Shown here: piece by piece, positions 35,972 through 52,844 of the stretch | Layout: each line of letters starts with the position of its first letter | How positions within the stretch are numbered: the stretch's first letter is position 1 | NCBI GenBank assembly: GCA_040768585.1 | Contig: JAXGMQ010000001.1 | Span: forward strand, 1,159,299 to 1,223,298 | From: Caldisericia bacterium | Lineage (GTDB): Bacteria; Caldisericota; Caldisericia; JAAYUI01 | Reading direction: 5' to 3' | DNA: 64,000 bases | The notes under the pieces: generated by a model | The model's database searches: none | What the model saw: the letters and a program-made list of their open reading frames with translations, nothing else | What the model was told of the DNA's origin: nothing | Made by a program: the position numbers and the translations under genes

Positions 35972-36037
35972 GGTAACTAGCAAGATTGAGGTGGAGCGAG
36001 TTTCTCTACCTTGAGCTTGGAAAGAAGAAATGACAAT

Positions 36038-36072
36038 CCCCCGAGTGAACTTATCGCTCGGGGGATTTTTTT
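36038..36072 (+). terminator. Canonical rho-independent terminator at the end of the giant-gene array.
   Basis: The 8-bp GC-rich stem CCCCCGAG (36038-36045) pairs with CTCGGGGG (36057-36064), separated by an 11-nt loop. A T7 run follows at 36066-36072, about 65 nt after the paralog 4 stop. Confidence 0.75.
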
Positions 36073-36987
36073 ATGTGAGAATGATTGTTGATTTTTACTA
36101 GATGAGCTTGAAGTGAATCCTTTTTTTACTTTCCAGTGTTGTGAGTTACTCAAGATGAGATATGATCCGTTCCCACAAATAACCACCGGGTCTAGAGAAT
36201 ATCGCTGTGAAGTAAGATATTGAAGTGGGAGGGTTGTAAATTCCTGTGTTTCCTCATCCCAGCAAGGCGGTGGGCACCAAAAGCGTTGTATCCAAGAGGA
36301 CAAAATTTTTGTGTTTGCCTTTGACTGATGTTTATTAAGTGAATAATCTCAAAACATTTTAGTACCGCCAAGCATAACTTCTATTGTTACCAAAGATTTG
36401 ATGATTCCGGTTCTACCAGGATAAGTAACCACAGAAGACACTTGTTGTAAACACAATTGGCTTTGATGGGTCTAGAGGTTTGAATGTTGTGTGAGGGGAT
36501 AGTTCGTGAACCAATGGGAGATTACTCATGATTGGAGTAGAATCTGGTGTGAGGAGTTCCGCAAGTTTTGTGAAAGCAGCATCTCTTCTTAAAATCCCAA
36601 GCAAAGCATGGTAGATACTTTTGCCTCCCACTCTCACATACCTATCTCAACTGGGACTAATTCAAGGTTGCTGGAAATGATGATGAGTTCACGAAGTTTT
36701 TTAAAAACTGCCCACCATGAAATAAACCACAAATTGCTCCAAATCACCTCCATTTTGTAAGCTTTCTCCAGAAAGATTCAATGCCACTCACACATTTTCT
36801 CCTTACGGACTTCCTTCGCCCTGAAGCAATCTTCATCCAATTCTACTTCATCCTTTAGTGGGCGATTTGCCCTCAAGTGGTTACAAAATCCTCTACTTCT
36901 GATTCCCCCTTAGGCATGTGGGGGCGATATACATATTTGTTTCCCTTTCCATTACTGACTATTTCAGATTGAGGAGATTAGGATAAC

Positions 36988-37022
36988 CAAAGCGCTTCAG
37001 TTGGTTACTGAAGTGCTTTGGG
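36988..37022. other. Strong 15-bp inverted repeat/hairpin (one G·U position, 5-nt loop) inside the non-coding stretch.
   Basis: CCAAAGCGCTTCAGT tggtt ACTGAAGTGCTTTGG, read directly from the sequence. No U-tract follows it. Confidence 0.4.
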
Positions 37023-37300
37023 TAGTGGGTATATAGTCTATCGAGAACCCCGCAAATTTATGAAGGGATTAGTCAACCTACAAACGGGAGACCACTCAAA
37101 CGACCAAACAGATGTCTTGCGGTGCTTTGATAATTGAGAACAATATAGAGCGAGGAGGGGGCATAAAAGTACTTTCCCGGATCCCAAAATTTGTAAGGGT
37201 CTAGATAGTTCACATTTTTGTTGAGTCTGAATGACGCTTCTTTAATTAACATTTTGTGCAGAATGAAAACTATAAACCAAAACAGCTTCAGATTGCGCAC

Positions 37301-37370
37301 GACCTCCTCACCCTTTCCCTCCCTCTCCCCCAAAGGGGGAGAGGAATTAGAGGGAGCTTCCTTTTTTCTA
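37301..37370. repeat. Polypyrimidine tract containing a perfect 10-bp hairpin (CCTCTCCCCC aaa GGGGGAGAGG), followed by a T6 run.
   Basis: CCTCCTCACCCTTTCCCTCCCTCTCCCCCAAAGGGGGAGAGGAATTAGAGGGAGCTTCCTTTTTTCT. A second similar tract, CACTCCCCTCTCCC...GGGGCAGGGGCG, lies at about 37455-37500. Confidence 0.4.
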
Positions 37371-37723
37371 AGGAATAGTTAGCAGACAAAAGAGGATTTT
37401 CTTACCTCTGTTAATATTACGCTCCCCTTTCTGAAAGTTGATATTTGGCACACGCACTCCCCTCTCCCTTATAATTGTAAGTGAAAGGGGCAGGGGCGAA
37501 GGTGATTGTTGATAATCATTTCTGAAACAAAAGCCTAAAAATTGGTCAATGAAAAGAAAACAACTCAAACTCAGAAATACACAACAGACTTTAGGTCTAA
37601 TAGTTTACTGTCTCTAACATCGAGCAATCTCTGTTAAAAAAGTTGAACTTGTAGGGAATGGGGACTAGGAAAAGTTATTGATTGGTAAGGTCTGAGTTGG
37701 TAAGAGCCTTCATAAATTGTTTG

Positions 37724-39283
37724 CTATTCTCTTGATTCGCCAAAATTATTACGTACGACAAAAACATCGTTCAGGTCGATGATACCGTTGTTATCGAAGT
37801 CGCACTCAAGTTTGAATCCTGGGTTGAAAGAACGCTTCCCGAGGTGTGTGGCAATAATGATGAGATCTGTCCCATCAACCCTACAGTCGAGGTTGCAGTC
37901 ACCCATAATCTGTTTGATAAAAAAGTTGATCCCAAGTTTGTACCTGTAGTTAGGAGTGTCGACGACTATTTCACCAAAGTCCTGGAGTGACAATACGCCC
38001 TTTGAATTGACACTAACGGCGACCGTCTCGGTGTACCCTGGATAGACGACAATCTCTCTTTTGTCGGTTGAGGTGTTTCTGGCGTAGGTGTGCACTCTGG
38101 CAGATATGGGAGAGCTTCCGAGATTGACTAGTCTAATCTCCCGAGTGTAAATCTTCTCAGGGCAGATGATTCCGAAATTCAAATCGCAGGATATTCCGAG
38201 GTAAAGTCCAAAAGGTGATGTTGAATATCTGATGAGTTTGGGGCCGCATGTCACATAGAAATCTGCTTTGTGAGGAACAGCCTGTGAAGTAATATCGCCT
38301 GGTGTGTTTATGGCGTTGTATGCGGAACCAGTGGATTTCTGGACCGGGATTATCTGGCTATTTCTGGTGCAACAGAGGATGATTCTTCCGCACACAGAAA
38401 TATTTGTTGGAGAGAGAGTTTTATTCATCCACGATGTGTCACCTTCGATGCTTTTGCAGAGAATCCCGCTATCGCTCCCAAAGAGGTAGACCCACTTGCA
38501 GTCAGTCACTGCCCCTTTGTTCTTTCCCGTCGGGGTTTTATCACTCCAGAGTTGTCTACAGTCCTCCACCGCAAGCGCAATGCATCCGCCCCTTTCAAGA
38601 ACAGCCACAAACGAGTTGTCGCTTATGGATGTAACACTCTCCACAAAACCAACCGTGGCGCTAGAGCATACAAGCTCCAGAGATTCTGCATCAAAGACGT
38701 GTACTCGCATGTCTCTGCAAGCGATGACCACCCGATTTCCGACAACCGTTGGGGCAGAAACTGGCTCATCAGGGAGTTCCCCGCTCGATTGTATGATGCC
38801 ATTTGTGTCTGCCCTGTAGATATGTGATTTGCTGTTGATGAATAGAGACCTGTCGGATGCCAAGAGACTCTGTGGGTCATCAACCTCGACATTCCACACG
38901 ACTGAATCGCTCGAGATTCTTCTTGCTGTTATTTCCTTGCCATCGAAGGAGATGAAAAGATCATTGAATATGACAGGCACACATGGGCCAGTTATCTTGA
39001 ATGTTCCCAGCTCCTCTTTGGAGTTGGTATGGAACACAACCGCCTCGTTGGCGCATATCGTAAAAATATAATCATTTGATGTCAGAATGTGGTGCCCCTG
39101 AGAGATAGTAACCTCCCAATTGGACAGATAGGGAGGGTGGACAGTCTGGGCACAATATGCCTGTCTACCACTGTTGCCGCCCACATTTGGCCAGAGGCAT
39201 ACGGCCTCCGAGCCACCTAAAACGGCGACACCGAGTGACACAATCAACAGTGCTAGAAGATAAGCTGTAAGTGCCTTCTTCAT
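37724..39283 (-). CDS. Secreted beta-propeller (PQQ-like repeat) protein with a C-terminal type-I dockerin domain.
   Basis: Signal peptide MKKALTAYLLALLIVSLGVAVLGG. The C-terminus has two EF-hand-like dockerin repeats about 33 aa apart: DCNLDCRVDGTDLIIIATHL and DFDNNGIIDLNDVFVVRNNF. The central region has a repeated beta-strand pattern. It is transcribed divergently from the ECF sigma gene. Confidence 0.7.
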   Translation of the reverse strand: MKKALTAYLLALLIVSLGVAVLGGSEAVCLWPNVGGNSGRQAYCAQTVHPPYLSNWEVTISQGHHILTSNDYIFTICANEAVVFHTNSKEELGTFKITGPCVPVIFNDLFISFDGKEITARRISSDSVVWNVEVDDPQSLLASDRSLFINSKSHIYRADTNGIIQSSGELPDEPVSAPTVVGNRVVIACRDMRVHVFDAESLELVCSSATVGFVESVTSISDNSFVAVLERGGCIALAVEDCRQLWSDKTPTGKNKGAVTDCKWVYLFGSDSGILCKSIEGDTSWMNKTLSPTNISVCGRIILCCTRNSQIIPVQKSTGSAYNAINTPGDITSQAVPHKADFYVTCGPKLIRYSTSPFGLYLGISCDLNFGIICPEKIYTREIRLVNLGSSPISARVHTYARNTSTDKREIVVYPGYTETVAVSVNSKGVLSLQDFGEIVVDTPNYRYKLGINFFIKQIMGDCNLDCRVDGTDLIIIATHLGKRSFNPGFKLECDFDNNGIIDLNDVFVVRNNFGESRE

Positions 39284-39408
39284 TTATCCACATTATTTAT
39301 CCTATTTATTGTATTGTCAATCCTCTATTTCTCAGCCTTTTTTGCAATTCTCTAATAATTTCATTAAAATGGTCTGATACTACTTGGTGAACCAGGGGTG
39401 GTGGTTGG

Positions 39409-40044
39409 GTGTATTTTACCCGAAGTTCGAGCACAAGCCCTTTTGTTTCGCTAACCTTGGGACAGATGGATAGGAAAACAGAAAAGAAAACGATTCTAGC
39501 GGCGCAGAAGGGTGACGCCGAAGCCTTCGAGAAGCTTTACAATGCATTCAAGCTGGAGTTGTACAGATCAGCGCTGCTCATTATGAAACATCCCGCCGAT
39601 GCTGAGGATGCCGTTGCTGAGACCTTCATCAAGACATTCAGGGCGATCGACAGGTTTGACACGAAGTATCCAATGAGACCTTGGTTACATCGGATACTTC
39701 GGAATGAGTGCAACAACATCTTCAAAAAGAAGAGAACAAAGACTGTACTGTACGACGACTTTGGCACAGATTGGAAAGAGTCAGTGGCTGATAGAGACTC
39801 GAAATGCACATCGACGCTCATCATTGAGGACGAGGAGGATTCGAGACTCATGGAACTCATCGATTCGATGAACGATAGCCACAGAGAGGTTCTGATTCTC
39901 CACTACTACGACGGACTCGATCTAATTAAAATCGCTGAAATCATCGGTGTCCCCATCGGTACCGTGAAGTCGCGACTCTTCCACGCCAGAAAACAGCTTT
40001 TGAAGTCTATCGAAGAGAATGAAGTGATATTGGATAGAGATTGA
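39409..40044 (+). CDS. ECF-family RNA polymerase sigma-70 factor.
   Basis: Region 2 (AFEKLYNAFKLELYRSALLIMKHPADAEDAVAETFIKTFRAIDRFD...RPWLHRILRNECNNIFKK) and region 4 (REVLILHYYDGLDLIKIAEIIGVPIGTVKSRLFHARKQL) are both recognisable. The ORF begins at a GTG at 39409. An in-frame ATG at 39466 (MDRKTEKK...) is an alternative start. Confidence 0.85.
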   Translation: MYFTRSSSTSPFVSLTLGQMDRKTEKKTILAAQKGDAEAFEKLYNAFKLELYRSALLIMKHPADAEDAVAETFIKTFRAIDRFDTKYPMRPWLHRILRNECNNIFKKKRTKTVLYDDFGTDWKESVADRDSKCTSTLIIEDEEDSRLMELIDSMNDSHREVLILHYYDGLDLIKIAEIIGVPIGTVKSRLFHARKQLLKSIEENEVILDRD

Positions 40045-40064
40045 TACAGAGAGAGACAGGGAAT

Positions 40065-42326
40065 ATGAGACACCTAACTACAGAACAGATTGCCGCCTAC
40101 CAGGCAGGAGGGATGAGAGCAAGCGAAAAGTTTTTCGCCTTCATCCACCTGCTTGTTTGCGGCGAGTGCAGGGCTGCTCTGAAAAAAGAGAAGAGACTTT
40201 TCAAGAGCACAAACACGAAACTCAAGCGAATTACGAGCCACAGCTTCCCGACAAACCTGATGGATGCGAGAGTGGGAGCAGTCATCTCACAGATAGCTGC
40301 TAACACTGCTCCGCAGGTGAGGTTTTTTGGCAAGTGGGCGACGGTGGCAGCGCTTGTTGTGGTGATGCTTGCGTCATCCTACTCGGTATTCTTCTTTGCC
40401 CCGATCGTGGGAGCAGCGAGAGAGACCCCTGCCCAGGCGTTTGTATCGTCAAAAATAATTCCAATCTACAACGAGATTGGCAACGTGGTTCCTGACATGT
40501 CAGACATCGCGAAGAAAGAGGTGTTCTTCAGGGCGATGTGCGACACACTGATGATTTGCACATCAGAGAGAATAAAGTGGATGTACAGCGAAGGTTACAC
40601 CCTGGAGGAGGTGTATTTCGCAAGTGTGGTGGCAAGGGTTATCGGCGCATCGACAGAATCGGTGCTGCCTCTTCTCAAGCAGGACAAGACGTGGGGGCAG
40701 ATTTTCTCCGAACTCAACATTCCTTTTTCACAGCAACTTGAGATAGAAGAGGGTGTCAAGCAAACAATCAAACAGACTGAGACCGCTATGGACAATCAGA
40801 AAACCTTCTCCGTTCCAGTCCGAAAAAATACCGATGGCTCAATCTCATCGGTTGTTGATATTCCTGAGGATGTCGCCAAAAAAATTCCGGAAGGCAAAGA
40901 GGCGACCGTCGAGATCGATAGAACCGGCAAGCCAACCGGCAACGTTGAGGTGCTTGAGAGACCGACTTACTACACCGGCAACATCGTATCAGTTGAATCA
41001 GGTTATGAGATTTTCACAGTGGATACCGAGAACGGCGATACCGTCACAGTCAGGGTCACACCTGAGACAAACATGAGACGCTATGGAGACTACTTCTTCA
41101 GAACAGAGCTTCGACAGAATCAGCTCTGCGTAGTCAATGGCGTCTGGAGTGAGGGCGTTCTATTCGCTGATTTTGTCGATATCAAAGAGCCTATCAGAAG
41201 CACAAATTTTGAGGGTGTTGTTATTGATATGGACGGTTCGTCAATCACAGTCACAGGATTTGGTGCTCCTCTTAAAAAGAATGAAAACTCAAACATAACA
41301 GGCACGCTTGAGATAGGCTCAAAGGTTGAATTTACGGCCTTTGGCAATGACTATGATGGCTTCCAGATAGAGTGGATGAAGGCTTCACCGAAGATTCAGC
41401 CCACTCCTACTCCCGCTCAACCCAGGGCGACTGTCGAAGGGATTGTTGTGGGCATCGATGAGATCGAGAAGCTTATCCTTCTTGATGACGGCACATCGAT
41501 TTTCTACAACAAGCTGACAGAATTTGCTGGAGGAATGCCCTGGGTTGGCTCTGTTATCGCCAGCGAGGCGTATGAGGTAAACACCAACCTTGATAACAAG
41601 TTCCAAGATCAGGCAATCAAAATCACGATATCAGCACCGAAGACAACGGATACCTTTGAGTATGCAAAGAAGCTTGACTCAATCGTGTGTCTGAGTGGGT
41701 GTAACTGGATACGACCAGAGGGTGTCACGAGAATCACCCTTGAGGGTGTTGATACTTCGTTCCTCATCATCCCGGATACGGTCGGTCATGATCAGGTGAC
41801 TCCAAACCGCAAGGGTTATCTGCTTATCCTTTCAGGCAACACGGTTGATGGCGTAAACATGATAACAAAGGTGAGTGTTGTTGACCCGAAGAGCATAGTC
41901 GTAAAGAGTGGCGTCATCGTCTCACACGAGGGCATGAAGGTGAAACTCGACGACGGTACAGAGATAACACTCAGGTCATTCACCGCAGGCGCAACCGGGG
42001 TTGCAAAGGACGCGAAGGCAGAGTTCAGGTGCTGGCAGACAGAAGGCAAACTCACAGCGCTTGAGGTGACACTGGTCGAGGAGACAAAGAAAACCATCGA
42101 GACTCCCTGGACAAGTGTTGTCTCCTTTGATGGAACAAAGCTTGTTCTTGAGGAAGGTCTGGTTGTTGAATTTGATGAGAACACAGTGGTTGTGACAGCC
42201 GTCCTCAAGGAAGAGATCGACTCATCCCAGATAACGATGGGTTCTAGGGTAATCTGCGTGTACACCGATAATGGTGACGGTAGAAAGATTGCCGTAAAGG
42301 TGATGGTATACATACAGGCTCCATGA
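40065..42326 (+). CDS. Anti-sigma factor. N-terminal ZAS-type zinc-finger motif, one TM helix, and a large (~650 aa) extracytoplasmic beta-rich domain.
   Basis: It immediately follows, and slightly overlaps, the sigma gene. FIHLLVCGECRAAL fits the HxxxCxxC anti-sigma motif. TM segment WATVAALVVVMLASSYSVFFFAPIVGAA. The likely start is the ATG at 40065 (MRHLTTEQ) after GAGAGACAGGGAAT; the ORF track begins at an in-frame TTG at 40041. Confidence 0.7.
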   Translation: MRHLTTEQIAAYQAGGMRASEKFFAFIHLLVCGECRAALKKEKRLFKSTNTKLKRITSHSFPTNLMDARVGAVISQIAANTAPQVRFFGKWATVAALVVVMLASSYSVFFFAPIVGAARETPAQAFVSSKIIPIYNEIGNVVPDMSDIAKKEVFFRAMCDTLMICTSERIKWMYSEGYTLEEVYFASVVARVIGASTESVLPLLKQDKTWGQIFSELNIPFSQQLEIEEGVKQTIKQTETAMDNQKTFSVPVRKNTDGSISSVVDIPEDVAKKIPEGKEATVEIDRTGKPTGNVEVLERPTYYTGNIVSVESGYEIFTVDTENGDTVTVRVTPETNMRRYGDYFFRTELRQNQLCVVNGVWSEGVLFADFVDIKEPIRSTNFEGVVIDMDGSSITVTGFGAPLKKNENSNITGTLEIGSKVEFTAFGNDYDGFQIEWMKASPKIQPTPTPAQPRATVEGIVVGIDEIEKLILLDDGTSIFYNKLTEFAGGMPWVGSVIASEAYEVNTNLDNKFQDQAIKITISAPKTTDTFEYAKKLDSIVCLSGCNWIRPEGVTRITLEGVDTSFLIIPDTVGHDQVTPNRKGYLLILSGNTVDGVNMITKVSVVDPKSIVVKSGVIVSHEGMKVKLDDGTEITLRSFTAGATGVAKDAKAEFRCWQTEGKLTALEVTLVEETKKTIETPWTSVVSFDGTKLVLEEGLVVEFDENTVVVTAVLKEEIDSSQITMGSRVICVYTDNGDGRKIAVKVMVYIQAP

Positions 42327-44290
42327 AAAAAATACTAGCTGCTGCTATTGCTCTCTCACTGGTTGTGCCGACTCTCGCAGTTGGCGCGACCAGTTTGAAT
42401 ATTGAGGTCAACCCCTCGCTAGCCACACTTGGCTGCGAGGTAAAAATCACTGCAACACTTGATGAACCCGCTCCTGAGGCGGCAAAGGTTGAGGTGAGAT
42501 TTCCCGTGGTCATGAAGGTGCCAGGGAAGATTGATGGTGGACTGATAACGGTCAATGAAATGCCTGTTGACACCATCACTGTTGAGAAGAATGTCCTTAC
42601 CTTTGATATCCCAGAACCAATTGAAGACCACGCGAATCTAGAAATTCTCATCCCAACGGCGTGTGGCATTGCAAACCCGTTTGAGGGTGGCAGCTATGTG
42701 ATAGAAATTGACATCGATGGAGTCAGACAAAGAACCAAGTTTGAGGTGGGCAGAATACTTGAAGAATCCCCAATAGTTGTGTTGTCCCCTGACCTTGCCG
42801 GAAAACCCGTCAACCTCATGGTACAGATTCCAGCATCAGAACACCTTCAGCTAGTGCAAGGTGATGCCGTTAAGATAACGCTTCCTGCGGAATTTATTAT
42901 GCCAGAGCTTCCTGACCTTGAGTATGTCACACTCTCTGGCGAGACGCCCCCAGTTGTTGATATGGATGGTAACACCCTCACGGTTGTCGTGGGCTCAGAT
43001 TTACCCATAAATAAGCCTATCACGCTCATTTTTGGAACAGAATTTGGTTTGGTACTTCCCCTCTGGCCGGACACCTACAAGCTAAATTTGGAGATTCCTG
43101 GCAAGCTAGAGGAGACATCGACTGATCTCTTCCAGGTGAGACCACTTAAACCAACTGTTTATGCCTCGGTTGATCCGCCGGAGCCTGAGAACAAGTGGTA
43201 CACGAAACCCCCAACGATCGAACTTCTCAGCGAGGTTGAGAGAGATATCTACTACAATTGGAACTACGAAAGAAAAACCCTTTACGCCGAGAGTTTTACC
43301 GCTCCAGAGGGTGTCAATAACCTCACTTATGTCGGCAGGATAAAAGATGGTGGCTGGGAGGCTGTTTTGACCCGCACCTTCAGGGTTGACTCAAACCCGC
43401 CAATTGTCGGTGATGTGGTGCGTTTCACCAATAAAGCTGAACTAGACTTAATATACAACATCATCGATGTGTCTCCCTGCGAGTCTGGGATTGATGGCTA
43501 TGAAACCGAGTCTCTTGGTGACAACAAATTCAGGACAACCCTTGAGCTTGCGCCTGGCGACAACAGCTTTGTTTTCTGGGCGGTTGACTCGTGCGGCAGA
43601 AAGGTCGAGACCCCCAAAACCATCACACTCGATAACACTCCACCAGCCCTTGATATACTCTCCCCGTCGTCTGGATCGGTCATATGTGGAAGGATAGTTA
43701 GAATTAACGGAGTAACAGAGCCAGGGGCGAAGATTACTGTCGATGGTTCAAACATCCAGGTCGACTCATCGGGCTATTTTATCGCTGTTGTTTCGCCAAC
43801 TGAGGAAGGTCCGGTCAATATAAAGGTTGTATCTCAGGATTTGGCAGGCAACACCCAAGAAGCAGTGCTGCCAATCCTCTATATTTCGGGGACTTCCATC
43901 TCGATGACAATCGGGAAGAAAGACGCTGTTTTTGCCGGAGTTGAAAAGAAGCTTCTAGTTGCTCCATACAAGGACTTTGATGTCACCTACATTCCAGCCC
44001 CAACTCTTCTTAAAGCTCTCAATTACGAGCTTGTCAAAGAGGAGACTGGGGATGGCTGGATGATAAAAGACCTTGTCGGGGATGAGAGGATGTATCTGTC
44101 TCCAGGCGATGTGAACATAGTCAGACAGGGAAGTTCCGGTGCATTCGAGATAAGTTTGTCAAACGCCCCTCAGCTTTCTGAGGATGTTTTGTGCGTACCC
44201 CTGGAATTCACGACGAAAATATTGGATTTGAACCCAAGTGAGTTTGCGGGTGGAGAAATAGTCATAAAATTCTGTCCCAGAGGGGAATAA
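42323..44290 (+). CDS. Secreted protein with Ig-like/beta-sandwich repeats; function unknown.
   Basis: Its ATG overlaps the anti-sigma stop (ATGA), which suggests translational coupling. Signal peptide MKKILAAAIALSLVVPTLAVGAT. Invasin/Ig-like segments are present, for example PPALDILSPSSGSVICGRIVRINGVTEPGAKITVDG. Confidence 0.7.
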   Translation: MKKILAAAIALSLVVPTLAVGATSLNIEVNPSLATLGCEVKITATLDEPAPEAAKVEVRFPVVMKVPGKIDGGLITVNEMPVDTITVEKNVLTFDIPEPIEDHANLEILIPTACGIANPFEGGSYVIEIDIDGVRQRTKFEVGRILEESPIVVLSPDLAGKPVNLMVQIPASEHLQLVQGDAVKITLPAEFIMPELPDLEYVTLSGETPPVVDMDGNTLTVVVGSDLPINKPITLIFGTEFGLVLPLWPDTYKLNLEIPGKLEETSTDLFQVRPLKPTVYASVDPPEPENKWYTKPPTIELLSEVERDIYYNWNYERKTLYAESFTAPEGVNNLTYVGRIKDGGWEAVLTRTFRVDSNPPIVGDVVRFTNKAELDLIYNIIDVSPCESGIDGYETESLGDNKFRTTLELAPGDNSFVFWAVDSCGRKVETPKTITLDNTPPALDILSPSSGSVICGRIVRINGVTEPGAKITVDGSNIQVDSSGYFIAVVSPTEEGPVNIKVVSQDLAGNTQEAVLPILYISGTSISMTIGKKDAVFAGVEKKLLVAPYKDFDVTYIPAPTLLKALNYELVKEETGDGWMIKDLVGDERMYLSPGDVNIVRQGSSGAFEISLSNAPQLSEDVLCVPLEFTTKILDLNPSEFAGGEIVIKFCPRGE

Positions 44291-44294
44291 GATT

Positions 44295-47200
44295 ATGAAA
44301 CGTTTTGTTGCGCCACTGCTTGCCGCTGTTTTTTTCTTCGCTGGTGTGTCGGTGTCAAAGGCTGTATGTAAGGTCGACGTCTACAGTGTTGACGTCAATC
44401 CCGCGGTGTCTCTGGCGAAGGCTTGCTATACGGTCAGTTTTCATATTGAGTGTGCCATGGTGGAGGGCGAGACGTTTGAGGTTCATCTTCCAAGGGACTC
44501 TGAGACGCCGTATGGCTGCCGAACGTGTGACGTTAACATAGACGGCGACTACAAGCACAGGTACGACGTTGAGGGGAATGTGGTAAGGATTCAACTCACG
44601 AGGGGTTTGAGCGCTGGCAGGCATTATTTTCACATCTGCAACGTCACAAATCCCAGCAGCAAAGGGCCACACGTTGTCAGTATCGTGTCCTCCGCCGGGG
44701 TTTTTACCTCAAGACCTTTCAATTTTGCAGACACGGCAATTTCAATCCCAAAGGTCGAAGTGAACCCCGACTATGTCAAGGCGTGTGCTGAATATGAGAT
44801 TACTTTCAAAACATCATCCGATGCCTCAACCGGTTGCGGGTGTTCGAGAAGAACTGTTATATATGTGACATTCCCAAAAAACTTTGTATTCCCCTACGAT
44901 ATTGACCCGCAGTTTGTGCTGGTGAATGGCAGGCCGGCTGATTCGGTCGGTATAATTGACAAGACACTCGTCATCACATCAAGCAGTAAGTTTGTTGCTG
45001 GACAGACCATTAAAATCAAGATTCTAAAAGGTGCTGGTGTCATAAACCCAGAAACCCCTGGGTGGTATTCGCTGAATGTCTACACCTCGGATGACAGAAT
45101 ATCTATCAACAGCGAGAGGTTCTACATCAGACCGTCAACGGTTACAAGAGCCAAGGTGACGCTCGATGACCCTTACACCTGCTCAAAGTCAGGTTTTGTC
45201 GTTGAGTTTATGACGGGCCCCTACGGTCAGATAAAAAAAGGGTCGAAGATTGAACTTATCCTCCCGCCATCATTTGACGTGCCTGATTTTATTCCCGCTG
45301 AGAATCTGTCAGTCAATGACATGCCTGTCATGTCAGAGTCAAGCATCAAATCCAACAATATCGACGGCTGGTCTCAGATTGCGGTGCTCTCGCCTGTTGA
45401 TATTGGGTCTGAGTCAAAGGTTGTGATTATCGTTCTACCAGGCGCTATGATAGCCTTGCCAGACACTCCATCCTATGATTACTCGATCGACGTAAGGACA
45501 GCAACAGAACCAAACAGGGTGCCATCGCTTCCCTTCAGTGTCGACCGTTCGAGGCTTAGAAACGTCAAGCTGACCGCTACTCCCTCCTATGTCTCGCTTC
45601 CTGCGGTTATTCAGGTTGCATTCAGGCTTGGCGGGTGCGGTGATTTGACCTCTGGAATCGACACAATCACTGTGCAGTTTGATGAACTGTTCTGGTTCCC
45701 AGACTCAAAGCTCATGACTGACATAAAGATCAATGGAGTCCCCGTTGACAGACTCGTCATGGTATCCGGCAAACAGATAACAATCTCCCCTCCCAATGAT
45801 ATCCCAGGCGACGAGTGGGTTACAGTTGAGTTTGGAGAAGGTTGTGGTATCAGAAATCCTTCCAAAGCAGGCGAACCTCAGAAGGTGAAGGTGTGGACAA
45901 CAAGAGAGCGAGATGCCTCTGTTTCAAACATCATCCTCTTTGCCACAACTAAAATATCTGGGGTAGCTGTCAGTCTTTCAAAACCCCAAACAGGCAAGTA
46001 TTCGTCCTGCGACATCACCTTTGTCTCAGGTTCAGCTGGAGCGCTGAAGGCAGGCTCACAGCTTCTGCTCAGATTTCCTGAGGGATTTGACTTCAAGGGG
46101 CCGGTCTCGACCCACACCATATTGGTTAACGAAACCAGATGCCGGAGGGTGAGACTCACTGAAAATACGTTGGAACTAACAACCGGCTTGGATATCGAGG
46201 CAGGCACTCAGGTGGGTGTGTCAGTATCGTCAGATGCAAACCTGAGACTGCCAGATGAACCGAGTTACTATCAAATCGAGGTTGCCACCGAGGCTGAACC
46301 AGAGTTTGTGCTGTCGCAGAGGTTCCCAATTGCTGATAAGATTCAATTTGAGTATAAGGTCACACCTGATGAGCCTGATGGGATTGATGAGTGGTATGTC
46401 ACACATCCAACCGTTGAGCTCAGGGCTTTCAACTCGCTCGATGAATTTGCCCAGATTGAGCTTGATATCAACTTTGATGTAAGACCATACAATGGTTCGT
46501 TTGAGATTGATGACGGGTTTACCGTCATAAAGGCTGTCGCAACTGACAAGTTTGGCAACGTGTCAGAACCGCTTGTGCTGAGTTTCGATGTCGACACAAA
46601 CCCGCCAACATTTGAACCTGAATCTGGCACTGTTTACTCAAGAGCCATGTATCACTCAGAGATTGTTGAGATTGATGAACTCAATGACGTTGAGATTGAA
46701 TATGACGAAACTGAGGGTGTGACAGTCGAAAGACAACGGGTAGCCGAACTTGTGAAGGTTTCCTGCAAGGTAGAGACTGAACAAACAAAAACGGTTGAGA
46801 TAACAGCCACCGACGAGGCTGGAAACAGCAACACCTGGGAGCGAATCGTTGTTTTTGATTGGACGGAGCCGATGTTGGAGCTGCCTGATAGGATTACAAC
46901 CGATGAATCGGAGATCACAATCTCTGGAAAAACAGAATCCGGTGCAAGCGTTGTCTGTGATGATGAGATAATAATTTGTGACGATGAGGGCAACTTCACG
47001 CACACCGTCAGTGTCAGTGATGGTTTCTCAAGGTTTTTTTTCACGGCAAAAGATAGGGCTGGAAACTCAAGCACAAAGGTGCTTGCTGTCGAGGCTAATC
47101 TTCAGATTGTGGTGGTTCTGACAATTGGAGAAACCGCGGCAACAATCAATGATGTGCCAACCGAGATTGGTTCAAATCCTGTCTACCTCTCATCCGGCAA

Positions 47201-47477
47201 TGCGATGATACCGCTTCGATTTTTGGCTGAGGCTTTTGACGCGGATGTGGGTTGGGACGAAAAAACTTCGGAAATAACAATCACCGTTGGTGATAAGGTG
47301 ATAGTTGTGAGAGTCGGCAACAGGATAGCAATTGTTGATGGGGAAGTGGTGGAGATGCCAGTTACCCCTGAGATTAAATCGGGCGCGACATTTGTTCCAC
47401 TGCGGTTTATCACCGAATCGTTCGGTTGCCAGCTGGAAGTTGTTGGCAAAAAAATAACAATCACATACAATAAATAG
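44295..47477 (+). CDS. Secreted protein with 5 or more tandem ~125-aa Cys-containing beta-sandwich modules, Ig-like repeats, and two C-terminal CuAO-N1-like modules.
   Basis: RBS AGAGGGGAA. Signal peptide MKRFVAPLLAAVFFFAGVSVSKA. Modules of the form VNG(R/V)P...I..PE.P recur. The C-terminus MIPLRFLAEAFDADVGWDEKTSEITITVGDKVIVVRVGNRIAIVDGEVVEM...ATFVPLRFITESFGCQLEV matches the copper amine oxidase N-terminal-like domain pattern. Confidence 0.75.
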   Translation: MKRFVAPLLAAVFFFAGVSVSKAVCKVDVYSVDVNPAVSLAKACYTVSFHIECAMVEGETFEVHLPRDSETPYGCRTCDVNIDGDYKHRYDVEGNVVRIQLTRGLSAGRHYFHICNVTNPSSKGPHVVSIVSSAGVFTSRPFNFADTAISIPKVEVNPDYVKACAEYEITFKTSSDASTGCGCSRRTVIYVTFPKNFVFPYDIDPQFVLVNGRPADSVGIIDKTLVITSSSKFVAGQTIKIKILKGAGVINPETPGWYSLNVYTSDDRISINSERFYIRPSTVTRAKVTLDDPYTCSKSGFVVEFMTGPYGQIKKGSKIELILPPSFDVPDFIPAENLSVNDMPVMSESSIKSNNIDGWSQIAVLSPVDIGSESKVVIIVLPGAMIALPDTPSYDYSIDVRTATEPNRVPSLPFSVDRSRLRNVKLTATPSYVSLPAVIQVAFRLGGCGDLTSGIDTITVQFDELFWFPDSKLMTDIKINGVPVDRLVMVSGKQITISPPNDIPGDEWVTVEFGEGCGIRNPSKAGEPQKVKVWTTRERDASVSNIILFATTKISGVAVSLSKPQTGKYSSCDITFVSGSAGALKAGSQLLLRFPEGFDFKGPVSTHTILVNETRCRRVRLTENTLELTTGLDIEAGTQVGVSVSSDANLRLPDEPSYYQIEVATEAEPEFVLSQRFPIADKIQFEYKVTPDEPDGIDEWYVTHPTVELRAFNSLDEFAQIELDINFDVRPYNGSFEIDDGFTVIKAVATDKFGNVSEPLVLSFDVDTNPPTFEPESGTVYSRAMYHSEIVEIDELNDVEIEYDETEGVTVERQRVAELVKVSCKVETEQTKTVEITATDEAGNSNTWERIVVFDWTEPMLELPDRITTDESEITISGKTESGASVVCDDEIIICDDEGNFTHTVSVSDGFSRFFFTAKDRAGNSSTKVLAVEANLQIVVVLTIGETAATINDVPTEIGSNPVYLSSGNAMIPLRFLAEAFDADVGWDEKTSEITITVGDKVIVVRVGNRIAIVDGEVVEMPVTPEIKSGATFVPLRFITESFGCQLEVVGKKITITYNK

Positions 47478-47480
47478 CTG

Positions 47481-49439
47481 ATGCTAGGATTCCTATATAC
47501 CCTCGCGCTTCTTGCGTACATTTATTCTTTCGTACTCTTTATCAGATTCTTTGTTTGGCGGCGTCTCGCCTGGTCGAGGTTTTGGAGAACAAAGGTGGAC
47601 ATTACTCTGTCCCAAATAAAGAGCATGGCAAGAAGTTGGGGGGTCAATCTTCCCTTTTTTACAATCATGGTGCCAGCTCGCAATGAGTCCAAGGTTATAA
47701 GGCGAACTGTTGAGAACCTGATGAGACTCGATTACCCAAAGGAATTTCTTCAAATAATCGTTGTCACAGATGAGAAGGAGAGGATCTCCCACGCAGAAAA
47801 GAAGCCTGAGCAGGTCGAGGGACTCTACAAAATTCTCATTGGCGAGACAACCGAGACAAAGTCGGTTGACCTTGAGGAGTTTCTGCTTGCGTGGGTAACC
47901 GAAAGCTTGCCCGTTGGGAGACTTGTCTATCTTGCGCAAAGGCTAGACAGAAGGATTGCAACGGCGAATTTTGCGCAAGACATGAAGGGTCTTGTCTTTA
48001 ATTTCTGCTCATCAATCCTTCGCGACAAACCAACCGACATCTCAAATATCTACTACGGCGTGAGGAAAGCGATCCCTGGCAAGACAGACAGAGAACTAAT
48101 GGAGATTGTGTCAGAGATTCTGCTTCAAGCGAGGGTGTCAATCAGACAGATTGCGGTTCGAATCAAGCTTAAAAGAAACATCACAAAGCGTGTAGCAAGC
48201 ATGGTTCCGAGGGGATATGCATCCACCTCGGCAACGGTTATGGAGAGGATTTCCGAGCTTGATGAAAATATAAAAAACAGGGGTGTTACATCTGTTGAGG
48301 CGTTGGGTGACCTTTATGACAGATTCTTCAAAACCACCCAACAGGTCGTGTGTGAGTGCATCGACTCTTTTAAAACCTCTGGGTTCAAACTCGCACACGT
48401 TGAGGTGCCGTATGATTTCGATGGTGAGTTTGGCGGTGTTTGCACAGGTGTTGAGGTTCGCTCAACAAAGGGCAGAGCCCTCAATTATGCCTTCTCTGAG
48501 GTTGACCCGCAGACTTGCATGATTGCGTTCTATGACGCTGAGTCTCACCCCGACCCAGATGTCTTCCTGCATGCTGCGCGTCACATGCTCTCGGATAATC
48601 CACCTGATATCTTGCAGGGGCCTCTTTTCCAGGTGAGGAACTACTACAGGATGGGAGCGCTCTCAAAGATTGGCGGACTATACAAGGCTATTGCTCATGA
48701 TTGGTATTTGCCCCTTATGTTCAACAGGCTTCCGTTTGTTGGCGGGACAAACCTGCACATCAGTTGGGATTTGATTCAGAGGATGAGAGGGTTTGACGAA
48801 CTCTCGCTCACTGAAGACCTTGAGTTCGGCTGTAGGGCGTACCTCTATTTTGGGACGAAGCTAACATTCCTCACAGTCAAATCAACCGAGCAAACACCCC
48901 CTACCATGCCTCAGTATTTCAGGCAACGTCTTAGGTGGGCATCGGGTCATTTGCAGGTCATCTCGCGTATCAGAAACTACCCCAGACCACGACTGTCTGT
49001 GGGTGATGCGGGTGACTACAAGAGACGGGCAAGGAAACTGTGGTGGTATCTCATTGTGATGGGACCGCTAGAGTGGATGGTGTATCAGCTCTCAACGGGC
49101 ATTGTGCTTCTGATGGATTTAATACTGCTTTCAAACTTCTTTGGTGCAACCATCCCTGGGCCATTCTTTGCTGAGAATGCGATACTATACTGGGCACTGG
49201 TTGGACTCAATGTGCCGTATCTGATTTTCACACTCTACTGTTACCTTAGGTATGATGAGGTGTTTGACAGAACTTTCAGACCTCTTACAGTTGCCGCTGG
49301 CATTTTTGATTTTGTGAAGCTTTTCATTGCCAGTTTTGTGGTTTTTCTCCTTCCTGCCCCCTACACCTGGGCGGTTGTGCTAAAGGCCATTGGACGCGCC
49401 CCAAAGACGTGGGTGAAGACGCCGAGGACGGGCGAGTAA
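47481..49439 (+). CDS. Family 2 glycosyltransferase (processive beta-glycan synthase type), integral membrane.
   Basis: An N-terminal TM helix is followed by IMVPARNESKVIRRTVENLMRLDYP (the GT2 Rossmann start), a DAE motif, and QRLRWASGH (the QxxRW motif of the cellulose/chitin/PNAG-synthase clade). Multiple C-terminal TM helices are present. It begins 4 nt after the upstream stop, so it is probably in the same operon. Confidence 0.75.
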   Translation: MLGFLYTLALLAYIYSFVLFIRFFVWRRLAWSRFWRTKVDITLSQIKSMARSWGVNLPFFTIMVPARNESKVIRRTVENLMRLDYPKEFLQIIVVTDEKERISHAEKKPEQVEGLYKILIGETTETKSVDLEEFLLAWVTESLPVGRLVYLAQRLDRRIATANFAQDMKGLVFNFCSSILRDKPTDISNIYYGVRKAIPGKTDRELMEIVSEILLQARVSIRQIAVRIKLKRNITKRVASMVPRGYASTSATVMERISELDENIKNRGVTSVEALGDLYDRFFKTTQQVVCECIDSFKTSGFKLAHVEVPYDFDGEFGGVCTGVEVRSTKGRALNYAFSEVDPQTCMIAFYDAESHPDPDVFLHAARHMLSDNPPDILQGPLFQVRNYYRMGALSKIGGLYKAIAHDWYLPLMFNRLPFVGGTNLHISWDLIQRMRGFDELSLTEDLEFGCRAYLYFGTKLTFLTVKSTEQTPPTMPQYFRQRLRWASGHLQVISRIRNYPRPRLSVGDAGDYKRRARKLWWYLIVMGPLEWMVYQLSTGIVLLMDLILLSNFFGATIPGPFFAENAILYWALVGLNVPYLIFTLYCYLRYDEVFDRTFRPLTVAAGIFDFVKLFIASFVVFLLPAPYTWAVVLKAIGRAPKTWVKTPRTGE

Positions 49440-49485
49440 GGTAATGTGGATGAAAGACACATTACCCAAAAAAAGAAGTGGAGGT

Positions 49486-50406
49486 ATGATGATGAAAAAG
49501 ACGCAATCAATGGTAATTGATGCTTTGATAGATGACATGATTACAAAGTTTTCTCCAAGTGAATTTGAGGAGTTCATAAAATTCCTTCTTAAAGCAATGA
49601 AGTTTGGTTCAAAAAAAACGCCAGATTCAGGGGATAAAGGTGTTGATGTTATTGGCACAATGAGTGCTGGTAGCTTAGCAGATGTTAAAATAAAAATACA
49701 GGTGAAGAAATACGCCAGAGATAGAAAAATTAGTAATGATACTGTGCTACAGCTGAGAGGAACATTGGCACCTGGAGAATATGGTTGTGTAATCACAACA
49801 TCAAGTTTTACAAGTAAAGCTGTAAGTGAAGCAAATGACTGCGCTAAAGGAAAGACTGAAATAACGCTTATAAACGGAATTGATCTTGCTAAACTGGTTT
49901 TGATGAATTTTGATAAAATCTCGAATGAATATCCAGATAGATTTTCAATACGGAGAAGGTTGAATATTCCGCCAGAAGAGAGTTTTGAAGTGGTTGACTC
50001 TAGAGATGATGTAAAAGAAGAACTCAGTGAGGAATCGATGTGTACAACTACCGAAGAAGATGATGACTTTAACACAATTGTTTGTCCGGCTTATGATGGT
50101 GGGGTTGAGAAAACATTTATCCCGAAAAAGGCATGGTGGGCTGTCAAAATTGCAGATAGAAATAAAAGTAAAATTTGCAATATAGCAATATATCAATCAT
50201 CTCCAACTTCTGCAATAACTCATTGGGGTAAGGTTGGAAGAATAGCGGATTACGATGAGACCGGTAAGTGCATTCTTTATTTAGAAGGTGAACCAAAAGA
50301 ATTGACAAACTATGTCAAAAAACCAGGGGGGAAACCTGGAATTCAAGGAACAAAGTATACAACGCTAGATAAACTCCTCAACGCAAAAACACTCGATGAC
50401 CTTTGA
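49486..50406 (+). CDS. Mrr-catalytic-domain (restriction endonuclease-like, PD-(D/E)xK) protein with a C-terminal domain of unknown function.
   Basis: The N-terminal ~150 aa (FEEFIKFLLKAMKF...GDKGVDVIGT...VKIKIQVKKYARDRKISNDTVLQLRGTL...GCVITTSSFTSKAVSEA...ITLINGIDLAKLVL) matches the Mrr_cat pattern. The likely start is the ATG cluster right after a GGAGG at 49486-49494; the ORF track starts at 49444. It sits in an AT-rich segment. Confidence 0.65.
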   Translation: MMMKKTQSMVIDALIDDMITKFSPSEFEEFIKFLLKAMKFGSKKTPDSGDKGVDVIGTMSAGSLADVKIKIQVKKYARDRKISNDTVLQLRGTLAPGEYGCVITTSSFTSKAVSEANDCAKGKTEITLINGIDLAKLVLMNFDKISNEYPDRFSIRRRLNIPPEESFEVVDSRDDVKEELSEESMCTTTEEDDDFNTIVCPAYDGGVEKTFIPKKAWWAVKIADRNKSKICNIAIYQSSPTSAITHWGKVGRIADYDETGKCILYLEGEPKELTNYVKKPGGKPGIQGTKYTTLDKLLNAKTLDDL

Positions 50407-50546: not shown

Positions 50547-52094
50547 CTACTTGGCTAAATCCGGATTTGGAAACAACACCAACACCTCGCCCTGTTTTGT
50601 TTTTGGGTATTCATCGGGGCTTTTCCAGATAACCTTTGCCCCCAATAACTCACAGACAAATCGAAGCGGCAGCATCATTGTGTTGTCGACGATAACAGGT
50701 GTTGTCTCAAACCTTCCATCGATTCTAACCTCAATTCCGTCCACTTTTGCTGTTGGTTTGTTCGCCCAAAGCTCGATTTTCTTTGGCATAATCGGCTCTA
50801 GATTGTTGAAGTTGTATGTGGGGGTCACAAATGTTGCTTTCTTCTCCTTTGAGTTCCAGGTCAGAGTGCAGCCGACTTTTTCTCCTGACACAGTATCAAC
50901 TCTTGTGAAGATGTTGTCCATTAGCCACTTTATCGGAACCATGAGCCTGTCGCCAATAACCTGAGCGTATGGCTTGATTGGGATGGTGTTCTCATCGACA
51001 TAGGCAAAGTATTTCTTGACCGGTATTCTTGTCATGACGGTTTCGATATCAGTCCTCTTTGTGGCATTCTCGATTTTCCAGACGAGTTTCAGGGGTTCTT
51101 TGTCATATACGCTTGTGAATTTGTAGACCGTGTCTGTGCCAATGTCAGACACCCAGACAAACCCCTGGCTGTCAACCTCAACAGAGCTGAGCTTCGCCTC
51201 TGGCGGGAAGACATTCTGTCCTGGGTTTTCACCCGTGTTGCCAATCTCACCGATTTTTGTGAAATTACCGTCAAGTACGGTGACGATGTTGGTGCCTGAG
51301 TCTGCCACGTAGTAATAGCCAAACTCATTGCTTGTTCTGTCTGCCGAGATGTCTGTTGGACTATCAAACACAAGTGAATCGTTGCTCTCTGTCGATATGA
51401 CAAATTCCCCATCACGCCTGTATTTTAAGATTCTCTTGTTACCAGTGTCGGCAACAAGCACATATCCTCGTACATCAACTACGACCCCCTCTGGACTGTT
51501 GAAATGCTCATTATCATTACCCGCTGGCGCGCTGGAGTGTTCGTATCCTTCTGGTGTGGTGAATCTTGGAATAGCATAATCGTTACAGTCTTCGACACTT
51601 TTATCAAAATCAATTGCATACGGATCATATCTGACGAGTTTGTTCCCTGCTCTGTCTATGACATATGCCCCAATATCGTCTGCTATTCCGATTTTTGCCA
51701 TGGCATATGGTTCAAGAAGTTCGTGCCTTTCCGGGTCACCTGTGAAGGTGTGGTGCGTCCTGTTTGGGTTCATGTTGACGATTGTGCCAAGGGTTGCATC
51801 AACAATACCTATTGTGTTTCCAACTCTGCAGGTGCTTATGTCCACCGGAGATACCAGTTTCAAATCTTTACAGTAGATAATCTCCTTTATGAAATCCCCC
51901 AAGTAGTGCCCATACATATCAAACTTATGAACCTTTGAGTTAATCGGGTCTGCAACAAAGATGTAGTACCCAAAGTCACAGGCAATCCCCATCTTCTTGT
52001 GCTGTGGCGCGCTCCTTGAAACAGACACGGAAAAACCAAACACCAAGATGGCAGCTAAAAACACCGACACATAAAATCTAATATTCCTCTTCAT
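50547..52094 (-). CDS. Secreted NHL-repeat/beta-propeller protein with a C-terminal CuAO-N1-like module.
   Basis: The likely start is at MKRNIRFYVSVFLAAILVFGFSVSVSRSA, after a GAGGGGGTG RBS; the longer ORF start at 52220 lacks one. NHL-like repeats are recognisable (YVADSGTNIVTVLDG, VWVSDIGTDTVYKF, YVLVADTGNKRILKY). The C-terminus MMLPLRFVCELLGAKVIWK carries the CuAO-N1-like motif. Confidence 0.7.
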   Translation of the reverse strand: MKRNIRFYVSVFLAAILVFGFSVSVSRSAPQHKKMGIACDFGYYIFVADPINSKVHKFDMYGHYLGDFIKEIIYCKDLKLVSPVDISTCRVGNTIGIVDATLGTIVNMNPNRTHHTFTGDPERHELLEPYAMAKIGIADDIGAYVIDRAGNKLVRYDPYAIDFDKSVEDCNDYAIPRFTTPEGYEHSSAPAGNDNEHFNSPEGVVVDVRGYVLVADTGNKRILKYRRDGEFVISTESNDSLVFDSPTDISADRTSNEFGYYYVADSGTNIVTVLDGNFTKIGEIGNTGENPGQNVFPPEAKLSSVEVDSQGFVWVSDIGTDTVYKFTSVYDKEPLKLVWKIENATKRTDIETVMTRIPVKKYFAYVDENTIPIKPYAQVIGDRLMVPIKWLMDNIFTRVDTVSGEKVGCTLTWNSKEKKATFVTPTYNFNNLEPIMPKKIELWANKPTAKVDGIEVRIDGRFETTPVIVDNTMMLPLRFVCELLGAKVIWKSPDEYPKTKQGEVLVLFPNPDLAK

Positions 52095-52738: not shown

Positions 52739-52844
52739 AGATTTCCTGTAATACTTTCATAGAATGTGTGAACAAAATGATTTGGGAGCATCCCAAATGA
52801 GATAAATAGCTTAGTTTGTGGATTCGAATATTTGGAGGTAGAAA

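Follow-up and report, generated by a model that had tools for sequence, protein, structure and literature searches.

A PF07833 domain ends seven proteins of the locus

The 64-kb stretch of DNA analysed here (the window) comes from an uncultured Caldisericia bacterium known from metagenome-assembled genomes. In a Pfam-A scan, seven ORFs match PF07833 (Cu_amine_oxidN1; InterPro IPR012854), the copper amine oxidase N-terminal or 'stalk' domain, at their extreme C-terminus, with scores of 30.0–125.6 bits against a gathering cut-off of 24.2 bits (scores are from the C-terminal 330 aa or from the whole protein). Four of the carriers are giant proteins encoded in tandem on the forward strand (g1–g4). 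Their stalk modules lie at 5060..5440 in g1 (ORF 2/56–5443; 49.5 bits), 15667..16047 in g2 (5653–16050, 3,465 aa, with a signal-like N-terminus; 42.5 bits), 26589..26972 in g3 (ORF 18990–26975; 80.7 bits) and 35546..35968 in g4 (27149–35971, 2,940 aa; 36.0 bits). Also on the forward strand, a 655-aa protein (42323–44290) ends in a module at 43889..44287 (30.0 bits), and a 1,060-aa protein (44295–47477) carries the best-preserved copy at 47106..47474 (125.6 bits). The seventh carrier is an NHL protein on the reverse strand (ORF 50547–52220, elsewhere called as 50547–52094, 515 aa), which matches NHL at 31.3 bits and has its stalk at 50550..51041 (52.2 bits). Searching all frames of the window with a profile made from these seven modules detected no eighth copy. 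NCBI gives these carriers, the 515-aa NHL protein included, the product name 'stalk domain-containing protein'.

A first-pass annotation of this DNA had proposed a module common to at least six secreted proteins and a PF07833 profile search as a check. That search places all seven carriers above the cut-off, adding the 42323–44290 protein, and the C-termini originally located agree with the module coordinates derived here to within ~150 nt. The proposal was to be dropped if the modules lacked a PF07833 match or were unrelated to one another; by profile and by fold alike, the stalk module is a bona fide PF07833 domain. The domain class is already known, as is the anchoring hypothesis, which is current in the literature.

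Each module is ~125 aa long rather than the ~90 aa first annotated, and is an internal tandem of two half-repeats of ~60–62 aa, each built of five strands, a helix and two strands in AF2 secondary structure. Aligning one half against the other gave z = 9–10 in g4 (9.0) and in 44295–47477, and just 0.3–2.7 in the more degenerate copies; in the NHL protein an insertion separates the halves. The 44295–47477 protein does end in the module, as annotated, but the 'two copies' ascribed to it are the halves of one Pfam domain, since the module is itself an internal tandem. The module superposes closely on domain D1 of the E. coli copper amine oxidase (ECAO). It also shares the two-half organisation of the PF07833 class at large, which comprises ECAO D1 and thousands of secreted proteins of Firmicutes: halves of ~50–60 aa with a VNG strand and an xVPLRxxxExLG helix (class consensus VNG...GRTxVPLRxxxExLGAxVxWD).

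Sequence conservation among the seven modules is low. Pairwise identity is 19–35%, the sole invariant residue is a Pro, and we found no polar ligand-binding motif shared by all seven. The Arg and Glu of the VPLRxxxE consensus are gone from g1, g2, g4 and 42323–44290, so that four of the seven copies depart from the class in this respect. The locus further differs from the class in its host, a member of Caldisericia and not of Firmicutes or Proteobacteria, in the strictly C-terminal position of the module after Ig-like domains, and in the giants themselves, which are ~3,000 aa long, non-repetitive and lack any other known domain.

Carrier architectures and the Ig-Ig-stalk cassette

The four giants are tandem paralogs with 32–39% identity across more than 1,500 aa, and the 42323–44290 and 44295–47477 proteins are weak paralogs of each other. 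Hence the description of the carriers as 'otherwise unrelated' was overstated: the module is carried by three independent architectures, namely the giant family, the 42323–44290/44295–47477 pair and the NHL protein. The window's left edge falls inside g1, whose remaining part matches residues 1456–3243 of a 3,243-aa ortholog. In this assembly a frameshift divides g3 into an N-terminal part (16223–19066) and the remainder (18990–26975); together the two ORFs run collinear with single orthologs of 3,578–3,611 aa, and the gene is unbroken (3,583–3,585 aa) in three other assemblies. The giants, acidic and without internal repetition, consist of serial beta-sandwich domains in which invariant Asp and Gly are abundant. 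The same 2.17-Mb contig encodes at least one more giant homolog, of ~2,700 aa.

In six carriers the shared unit is larger than the stalk and consists of an Ig-Ig-stalk cassette with the stalk last. The Ig-like (Glucodextran_B/Big) part of g1 occupies 4415..5059 (+), directly upstream of the stalk, and equivalent cassettes are found at 15022–15666 in g2, 25944–26588 in g3, 34901–35545 in g4, 43244–43888 in 42323–44290 and 46461–47105 in 44295–47477. Pfam scans returned PF09136 in six of the seven carriers. The Ig cassettes resemble one another (BLASTP E-values of 5e-3 to 2e-29), and the stalk modules are less alike among themselves.

Homologs of the giants are ~2,700–3,600 aa long, and the C-terminal module is recognisable and full-length in ~52 of 62, at 31–66% overall identity; three homologs stop cleanly after the Ig domain, without a stalk. 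In every one of 59 comparisons within the giant family, the stalk was the region with the lowest conservation, being 27–45% identical where the body is 57–69% identical.

A sigma/anti-sigma/stalk/GT2 gene string

Two of the carriers belong to a tightly packed string of genes on the forward strand. Its first gene (39409..40044) encodes an ECF sigma factor with Sigma70_r2 and Sigma70_r4_2 domains (TIGR02937, 92 bits), and its second (40041..42326) a putative zinc-finger anti-sigma factor, which overlaps each neighbour by 4 nt. The latter has an HxxxCxxC motif (IHLLVCGEC), a weak RseA match, one transmembrane segment at ~93–123 and an outer domain of ~640 aa that matches no known family. The two thus have the features of an ECF sigma factor with a ZAS-type anti-sigma factor. 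After the two stalk proteins, a membrane glycosyltransferase, GT2 (47481..49439), starts 4 nt past the 44295–47477 stop codon (Glyco_trans_2_3, PF13632, 72.7 bits; no equivalog-level NCBIfam match was found). It has TED at 444, QRLRW at 482, one N-terminal and three C-terminal hydrophobic segments. TED and Q(Q/R)xRW mark processive synthases such as BcsA, NodC and the hyaluronan and chitin synthases, and by these motifs GT2 is of the processive, synthase type.

The string recurs in two other lineages. Locus L009 keeps the order sigma, anti-sigma, stalk, stalk, GT2, its sigma factor being 69% identical in the same position; in L010, where the contig begins partway through the first stalk gene, the part present has the same order of stalk, stalk, GT2. 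The GT2 orthologs are 60–62% identical, a conservation that among the protein-coding genes of the cluster is second to that of the sigma factor, and they lie beside or near the stalk-protein orthologs. In both loci the downstream, opposite-strand slot is filled by a stalk protein with a different body.

The first-pass annotation raised the adjacent GT2 as a possible maker of the stalk's ligand; in its specific form, this speculative idea has all seven stalks recognising the synthase product. The motifs and membrane segments that GT2 shares with processive beta-glycan synthases, the 4-nt spacing and the conserved proximity in L009 and L010 favour this idea. However, synteny between related genomes is evidence of linkage and not of binding. 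No such GT2 is found near the L011 and L012 homologs of 44295–47477 (~25% identity), and GT2 relatives of other phyla (L005–L008) have no stalk module in the flanking sequence examined. Moreover, the giants lie 11–47 kb away, outside the string, and divergence among the stalk copies is too great to point to a single binding site for all. We regard a single GT2-made ligand for all seven as quite unlikely.

Distribution of PF07833 modules

A search of the family retrieved 41,553 representatives of 50%-identity clusters at E ≤ 1e-3, and all 60 relatives scanned match PF07833. The first-pass picture of a conserved C-terminal module does not extend to the family, where the N-terminal position is commoner: among the 149 best representatives, 75 carry the module N-terminally, 29 C-terminally and 14 internally, and 31 have modules throughout. 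Peptidoglycan enzymes are among the partner domains of the 60 relatives, with Amidase_3 and YkuD in 3 proteins each, and one relative combines PF07833 with SLH.

This variable position, together with the paralogy of four of the seven carriers, the weak constraint on the stalk and the few giants that end without it, might indicate a stable terminal or spacer domain with no shared targeting role, spread by giant paralogy and occasional domain shuffling. Yet ~52 of 62 giants keep a full-length terminal module despite divergence to ~31% identity, three unrelated bodies bear it inside one 64-kb window, and the L009 and L010 slot holds a stalk protein with another body. Jointly these observations argue for selection on the module itself, and a mere spacer appears very improbable.

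Secretion and proposed retention at the cell envelope

In all complete carriers the N-terminus includes a hydrophobic, signal-like stretch of the Sec type, and the carrier proteins of the window are acidic (pI 4.4–5.2). None has a C-terminal transmembrane helix, and Pfam scans found no match to SLH (PF00395), LysM, CW_binding or SH3 in any of them. Sortase-type attachment does not fit either: the stalk reaches the last residues, leaving no room for an LPXTG motif, and there is no C-terminal hydrophobic segment. Caldiserica are reported to have neither LPS genes nor BamA and are counted as monoderms; the host lineage presumably has no outer membrane with LPS.

With signal-like N-termini and no other anchor, a terminal retention or targeting role for the stalk is reasonable. 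Such a role is assumed for PF07833 in the literature (PMC4137172; PMC3413522; PMC3582634; bioRxiv 10.64898/2026.09.23.753664). PF07833 proteins are found in the D. reducens surfaceome and among wall hydrolases (PMC4137172). PF07833 is the only non-cohesin module of OlpC and ScaG, cell-surface scaffoldins of cellulosome-producing clostridia (PMC3413522; PMC12811415), and it is C-terminal in Swol_0133, an acidic, predicted S-layer protein that is more abundant than any other in the envelope of Syntrophomonas wolfei (PMC3582634). In these three surface-located proteins it is the only recognisable module without another function; they are far smaller than our carriers and have other bodies.

We found no experiment in the literature that demonstrates wall or glycan binding by any PF07833 domain. 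The one direct probe test that we found is a published Paenibacillus screen, in which cells were labelled by single-SLH probes alone and a PF07833-domain probe left the wall unlabelled. SH3 and PG_binding_1 probes failed as well, so the sensitivity of the assay may be low. A further PF07833-class domain is that of PaSOD, a secreted Cys-less Cu/Zn superoxide dismutase of the monoderm Paenibacillus lautus. It is N-terminal, unlike the window stalk, and drives homodimerisation, as established by SEC-MALS and a crystal structure (PMC10432803).

These data raise the alternative that the stalk is a protein–protein assembly module, which would dimerise or pair with other stalks or with envelope proteins to give homo- or hetero-oligomers or a lattice, and not a binder of wall polysaccharide. 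Along with the PaSOD precedent (PMC10432803) and the negative wall labelling, fast paralog-specific divergence of the stalk is easier to reconcile with interfaces that each co-evolve with a partner of their own than with one ligand common to all, and the seven copies have no polar motif in common. In the model, the internal pseudo-twofold repeat would also offer two equivalent beta-sheet edges. However, by its authors' account the PaSOD domain overlaps ECAO D1 only in part and superposes on it poorly, where the window module superposes closely, so this precedent may not apply here. In addition, being fused to peptidoglycan hydrolases and L,D-transpeptidases, as PF07833 is, is more typical of wall-targeting modules (PMC4137172). 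A purely protein-binding role seems to us rather unlikely.

Overall, we suggest, with about an even chance of being right, that the stalk is a device for retention or assembly, without catalytic function, which holds its carriers on the cell envelope after export. The shared anchoring device of the first-pass annotation finds support in the secretion of the carriers and their lack of any other anchor, and is weakened by fast divergence, the negative probe and a dimerising relative. The founding member of PF07833, ECAO D1, is part of a periplasmic enzyme and has no anchoring role. If the stalk is a retention device, it would hold non-covalently, binding a wall-associated polymer or else partnering other stalk proteins or proteins of the envelope. 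The two stalk proteins of the sigma/anti-sigma-to-GT2 string would probably be deployed jointly with the glycan that GT2 makes.

Relation to other envelope systems

A functional parallel is the SLH system with its CsaB-pyruvylated secondary cell-wall polymer, in which a terminal non-catalytic module is likewise shared by diverse surface proteins in the absence of a classical outer membrane. The stalk is unrelated to SLH in sequence and fold, and for SLH, unlike the stalk, the ligand and a conserved binding motif are known. Since one relative bears both, the two modules are not simply interchangeable.

The immediate value of the locus is modest, because an annotated domain is re-identified and a current hypothesis restated. 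Nevertheless, few families of secreted-protein domains that lack an assigned function are as large as PF07833, with its tens of thousands of clusters, and a locus with three unrelated secreted architectures is a compact test system for wall anchor versus assembly module. What the locus adds is a linkage-conserved glycan synthase, a sigma/anti-sigma pair and a phylum whose envelope is itself in question. Caldisericum shows an 'outer membrane-like' envelope by electron microscopy in a lineage without BamA and LPS genes. It is conceivable, though a long shot, that the giants are structural proteins of this layer, tethered by Ig-Ig-stalk to the wall or to the GT2 glycan; PF07833 would then anchor an outer layer built of protein in a phylum that branches deeply. 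Of the few giant-family members with a named source, one bears the label 'bacterium' and the others Caldisericia bacterium.

A C-terminal PF07833 module in seven secreted proteins

In Pfam scans seven ORFs end in a PF07833 (Cu_amine_oxidN1) domain, here called the stalk module, and all seven scores (30.0–125.6 bits) exceed the Pfam gathering threshold of 24.2 bits. Four carriers are giant proteins encoded in tandem on the plus strand over the first 36 kb of the window: g1 (2/56–5443, truncated by the window edge), g2 (5653–16050, 3,465 aa), g3 (two ORFs, 16223–19066 and 18990–26975) and g4 (27149–35971, 2,940 aa). The others are plus-strand proteins of 655 aa (42323–44290) and 1,060 aa (44295–47477) and a minus-strand NHL-repeat protein (50547–52094). 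A first-pass annotation had proposed a PF07833-type terminal module common to secreted proteins here, at positions that agree with the derived ones within about 150 nt; the profile search gave significant matches, and the proposal stands. Its six carriers are all confirmed, and the 655-aa protein brings the count to seven.

The module is about 125 aa long rather than the ~90 aa first suggested, and consists of two ~62-aa units, each with five strands, a helix and two strands. The half-repeat duplication is significant in sequence for g4 and the 1,060-aa protein (z = 9–10). Two module copies had been assigned to the latter; each is in fact one half of a single domain, an arrangement found in all carriers. 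Both phmmer and hmmsearch give one domain there, the only other stretch having an independent E-value of 150, and a seven-module profile found no extra copies among six-frame ORFs of the window at E ≤ 1. By profile, fold and repeat organisation the stalk is a PF07833 member.

Its carriers had been described as otherwise unrelated. This holds for three independent architectures, the NHL protein being unrelated to every other carrier, and fails within them: the giants are paralogs (32–39% identity over 1,500–1,800 aa; the start of g2 and of g4 is matched by the N-terminal fragment 16223–19066), and the 655-aa and 1,060-aa proteins are weak paralogs. In six of the seven carriers the stalk follows one or two Ig domains of the Glucodextran_B/Big type (Pfam). 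These Ig cassettes match between proteins at E-values of 5e–3 to 2e–29, closer than the stalk modules do to each other (g1 versus g2 stalk, E 3.6, 20% identity). The unit in common is an Ig-Ig-stalk cassette. Pfam/InterPro text describes Glucodextran_B as a cell-wall anchor, a description left out of the evidence here. The seven stalk copies have a single invariant residue in common, and the consensus Arg and Glu of the family are gone from four. Homogenisation of the modules within the genome was considered and rejected, as the 1,060-aa protein's module is 33–40% identical to Firmicutes modules versus 19–35% to those of the giants.

The family is large. A profile search covering 1.84 billion representatives matched 41,553 proteins at E ≤ 1e–3 and 11,989 at E ≤ 1e–10. 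Among the best 149 of the 41,553, a ranking that favours multi-copy proteins, the domain was N-terminal in 75, spanned the whole protein in 31, and was C-terminal in 29 and internal in 14. PF07833 was matched in 60/60 relatives scanned, where its partner domains include LRR (4), Amidase_3 (3), YkuD (3), peptidases and one SLH.

The giant protein family

Homologs of g4 form more than 60 clusters of about 2,200–3,600 aa. Only a few have a named source, and these are labelled Caldisericia bacterium or, in one case, just 'bacterium'. A recognisable terminal stalk module is present in about 52/62 giants, three stop cleanly after the Ig domain, and the ends of a few others are aberrant. Pfam detected nothing in the bodies ahead of the CarboxypepD_reg, Big_1 and Ig domains at the C-terminal end, the first ~2,300–3,100 aa had no Pfam or PDB match, a PDB sequence search with g4 gave no match, and no internal repeats were found at BLAST level. 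The giants (homologs P0203–P0263) are non-repetitive and acidic, 2,700–3,600 aa in length, with about 350 positions at least 90% conserved, mainly Asp, Gly, Pro and Tyr; many Asp and Gly residues of the bodies are invariant. Conserved motifs include YPGGQTH, WQDRG, KYGDDxxDR and LPxYYWxRTDL, and a unit YDxGExIY...GDxRLTxV...GxxVxxxDxDxG recurs in the N-terminal part. An AF2 model of the g4 conserved core (residues 1250–2150) was only of medium confidence (pLDDT 65.4, pTM 0.71) and resembles generic strings of beta-sandwich domains. Foldseek matches to it were generic, multi-Ig or macroglobulin-like (TM ≤ 0.14), and function is therefore not assignable from the fold.

We compared conservation of stalk and body. 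The stalk is the least conserved giant region in 59/59 comparisons (median identity 20% versus 33% for the body), and in the eight closest homologs the values are 27–45% versus 57–69%. The gap is smaller in the 1,060-aa protein family (42% versus 52%).

The two ORFs of g3 overlap at about 18984–19066 through a frameshift, and both are collinear with orthologs that are single proteins of 3,578–3,611 aa; three further assemblies from the same species-level population have an unbroken g3 (3,583–3,585 aa). Either the 2.17-Mb contig carries an assembly or sequencing error at this point, or the gene is a strain-specific pseudogene. The giants also end in proline in 25/60 cases, where composition expects roughly 6%, mostly as hydrophobic-Pro (LP, IP, MP, YP). 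The corresponding terminus of g4 lies at 35957–35968. The anti-sigma factor at 40041–42326 likewise ends in proline (...YIQAP). The terminal proline may be a processing or sorting feature.

A conserved sigma–stalk–GT2 cluster

The 655-aa and 1,060-aa genes lie in a tightly packed plus-strand string with 4-nt gene overlaps or 3–4 nt gaps, running from an ECF sigma factor (39409–40044) and the anti-sigma factor through both stalk genes to a GT2 glycosyltransferase (47481–49439) and an Mrr-like nuclease (49444–50406). The GT2 protein has a split GT2 domain (Pfam), TED (444) and QRLRW (482) motifs, and one N-terminal and three C-terminal hydrophobic segments, a combination that marks processive glycan synthases embedded in the membrane. 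It had no equivalog-level family match and no match in a PDB sequence search.

Searching genome contigs with GT2 returned only distant matches in other phyla, and a metagenome-contig search with the 1,060-aa protein gave no confirmed match. Two related lineages carry syntenic loci. In L009 (1,060-aa protein ortholog 47–48% identical) the genes for sigma, anti-sigma and the two stalk proteins come in the same order, with three inserted genes between them and GT2; in L010 (39–40% identity) GT2 lies directly 3' of two stalk genes, the locus beginning at a contig end inside the first. Their GT2 orthologs are 60–62% identical. Both also encode a ~535-aa stalk protein downstream on the opposite strand, which cannot be treated as an NHL protein ortholog, the module alone being in common. 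No GT2 was found near 1,060-aa protein homologs at about 25% identity (L011, L012), and the flanking sequence examined on both sides of GT2 relatives in other phyla (L005–L008) contained no stalk module. This gene order supports a functional link between GT2 and the two stalk proteins of the string. GT2 had also been suggested as a possible source of the module's ligand; the gene order gives no support to its product being the ligand of all seven modules.

The position after GT2 holds the Mrr-like restriction endonuclease here and SLFN_AlbA_2 and HATPase_c_4/MarR_2 genes in L009 (18998–20611); it seems to be a variable, defence-like slot that closes the conserved cluster.

Possible roles: envelope retention versus protein assembly

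Envelope retention or assembly is the best-supported function for the stalk, a reading we hold with roughly even confidence: the module would keep exported carriers at the cell surface. The case for retention is built on export of the carriers without another anchor, persistence of the module at the C-terminus of most giants, fusions to peptidoglycan-active enzymes and literature precedents. Complete carriers have a signal-like hydrophobic N-terminal segment and a pI of 4.4–5.2; all lack a C-terminal hydrophobic segment, and Pfam scans of the carriers gave no SLH or LysM match. Fusions to peptidoglycan-active enzymes occur among the 60 relatives scanned. PF07833 is also known from peptidoglycan-active proteins and from the D. 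reducens surfaceome (PMC4137172), is the sole non-cohesin module of the cell-surface scaffoldins OlpC (PMC3413522) and ScaG (PMC12811415), and forms the C-terminus of Swol_0133, which is abundant, acidic and predicted to be an S-layer protein (PMC3582634).

Several points count against, or at least not for, a common ligand. We found no binding data for PF07833 in the literature, and the PaSOD relative is a dimerisation domain (PMC10432803). In a Paenibacillus screen cells were labelled by single-SLH probes only, the four non-SLH binding-domain probes, which include a PF07833 carrier according to the paper's domain list, being negative. Fast stalk evolution, the single invariant residue and the Arg/Glu loss point the same way. 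Weighing these points with the support for retention, we therefore rate envelope retention or assembly best, and regard a protein–protein assembly module as its main rival, albeit a somewhat unlikely one.

Caldiserica are reported without LPS genes or BamA and are treated as monoderms; electron microscopy of Caldisericum nonetheless shows an outer membrane-like layer. That the giants build a Caldisericia outer layer, tethered by the stalk cassette, seems quite improbable. By analogy, the stalk may act like SLH-type anchors, although it is not a member of these or other known anchoring families. The PF07833 domain, the annotation of these proteins with it and the idea of anchoring all pre-date this analysis. 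New are the strictly C-terminal stalk on an uncharacterised giant family, the Ig-Ig-stalk unit, and the conservation of the cluster that runs sigma, anti-sigma, stalk, stalk, GT2.

Other features of the window

Exact matching assigns the proteins to NCBI metagenome-assembled genomes labelled "Caldisericia bacterium", among them a 2.17-Mb contig, and assemblies from JGI, ENA and Logan contain the same locus. Neither Rfam nor tRNA scans of the 64-kb window gave matches, including in a 1.75-kb low-GC (0.41) gap between g4 and the next gene (35972–37723; longest ORF ≤108 aa). That gene (37724–39283, minus strand) encodes a secreted beta-propeller protein of the PQQ/BamB-like type, whose dockerin-like segment at the C-terminus (Dockerin_1, 23.0 bits versus a 22.9-bit Pfam cut-off) is a terminal module different from that of its stalk-bearing neighbours. 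Near 52000 GC falls from 0.44–0.50 (giants, sigma-to-GT2 string) to 0.37–0.39, a level kept to the window's end, and GC skew increases. The shift may reflect the giants' amino-acid composition or a foreign-DNA boundary. Four small tandem genes (52220–54370; 155–172 aa), paralogs at 25–28% identity with hydrophobic N-terminal halves and no Pfam match, are followed 3' by two thioredoxin-family genes, 54472–55101 and one of 108 aa that is called in L001. Three tandem proteins of ~710 aa (55814–62351) have lipoprotein-like N-termini (...SCGGDYGM...) and weak PQQ_2 matches; full-length identity between the second and third is 28%, and the first is only 466 aa in some assemblies.
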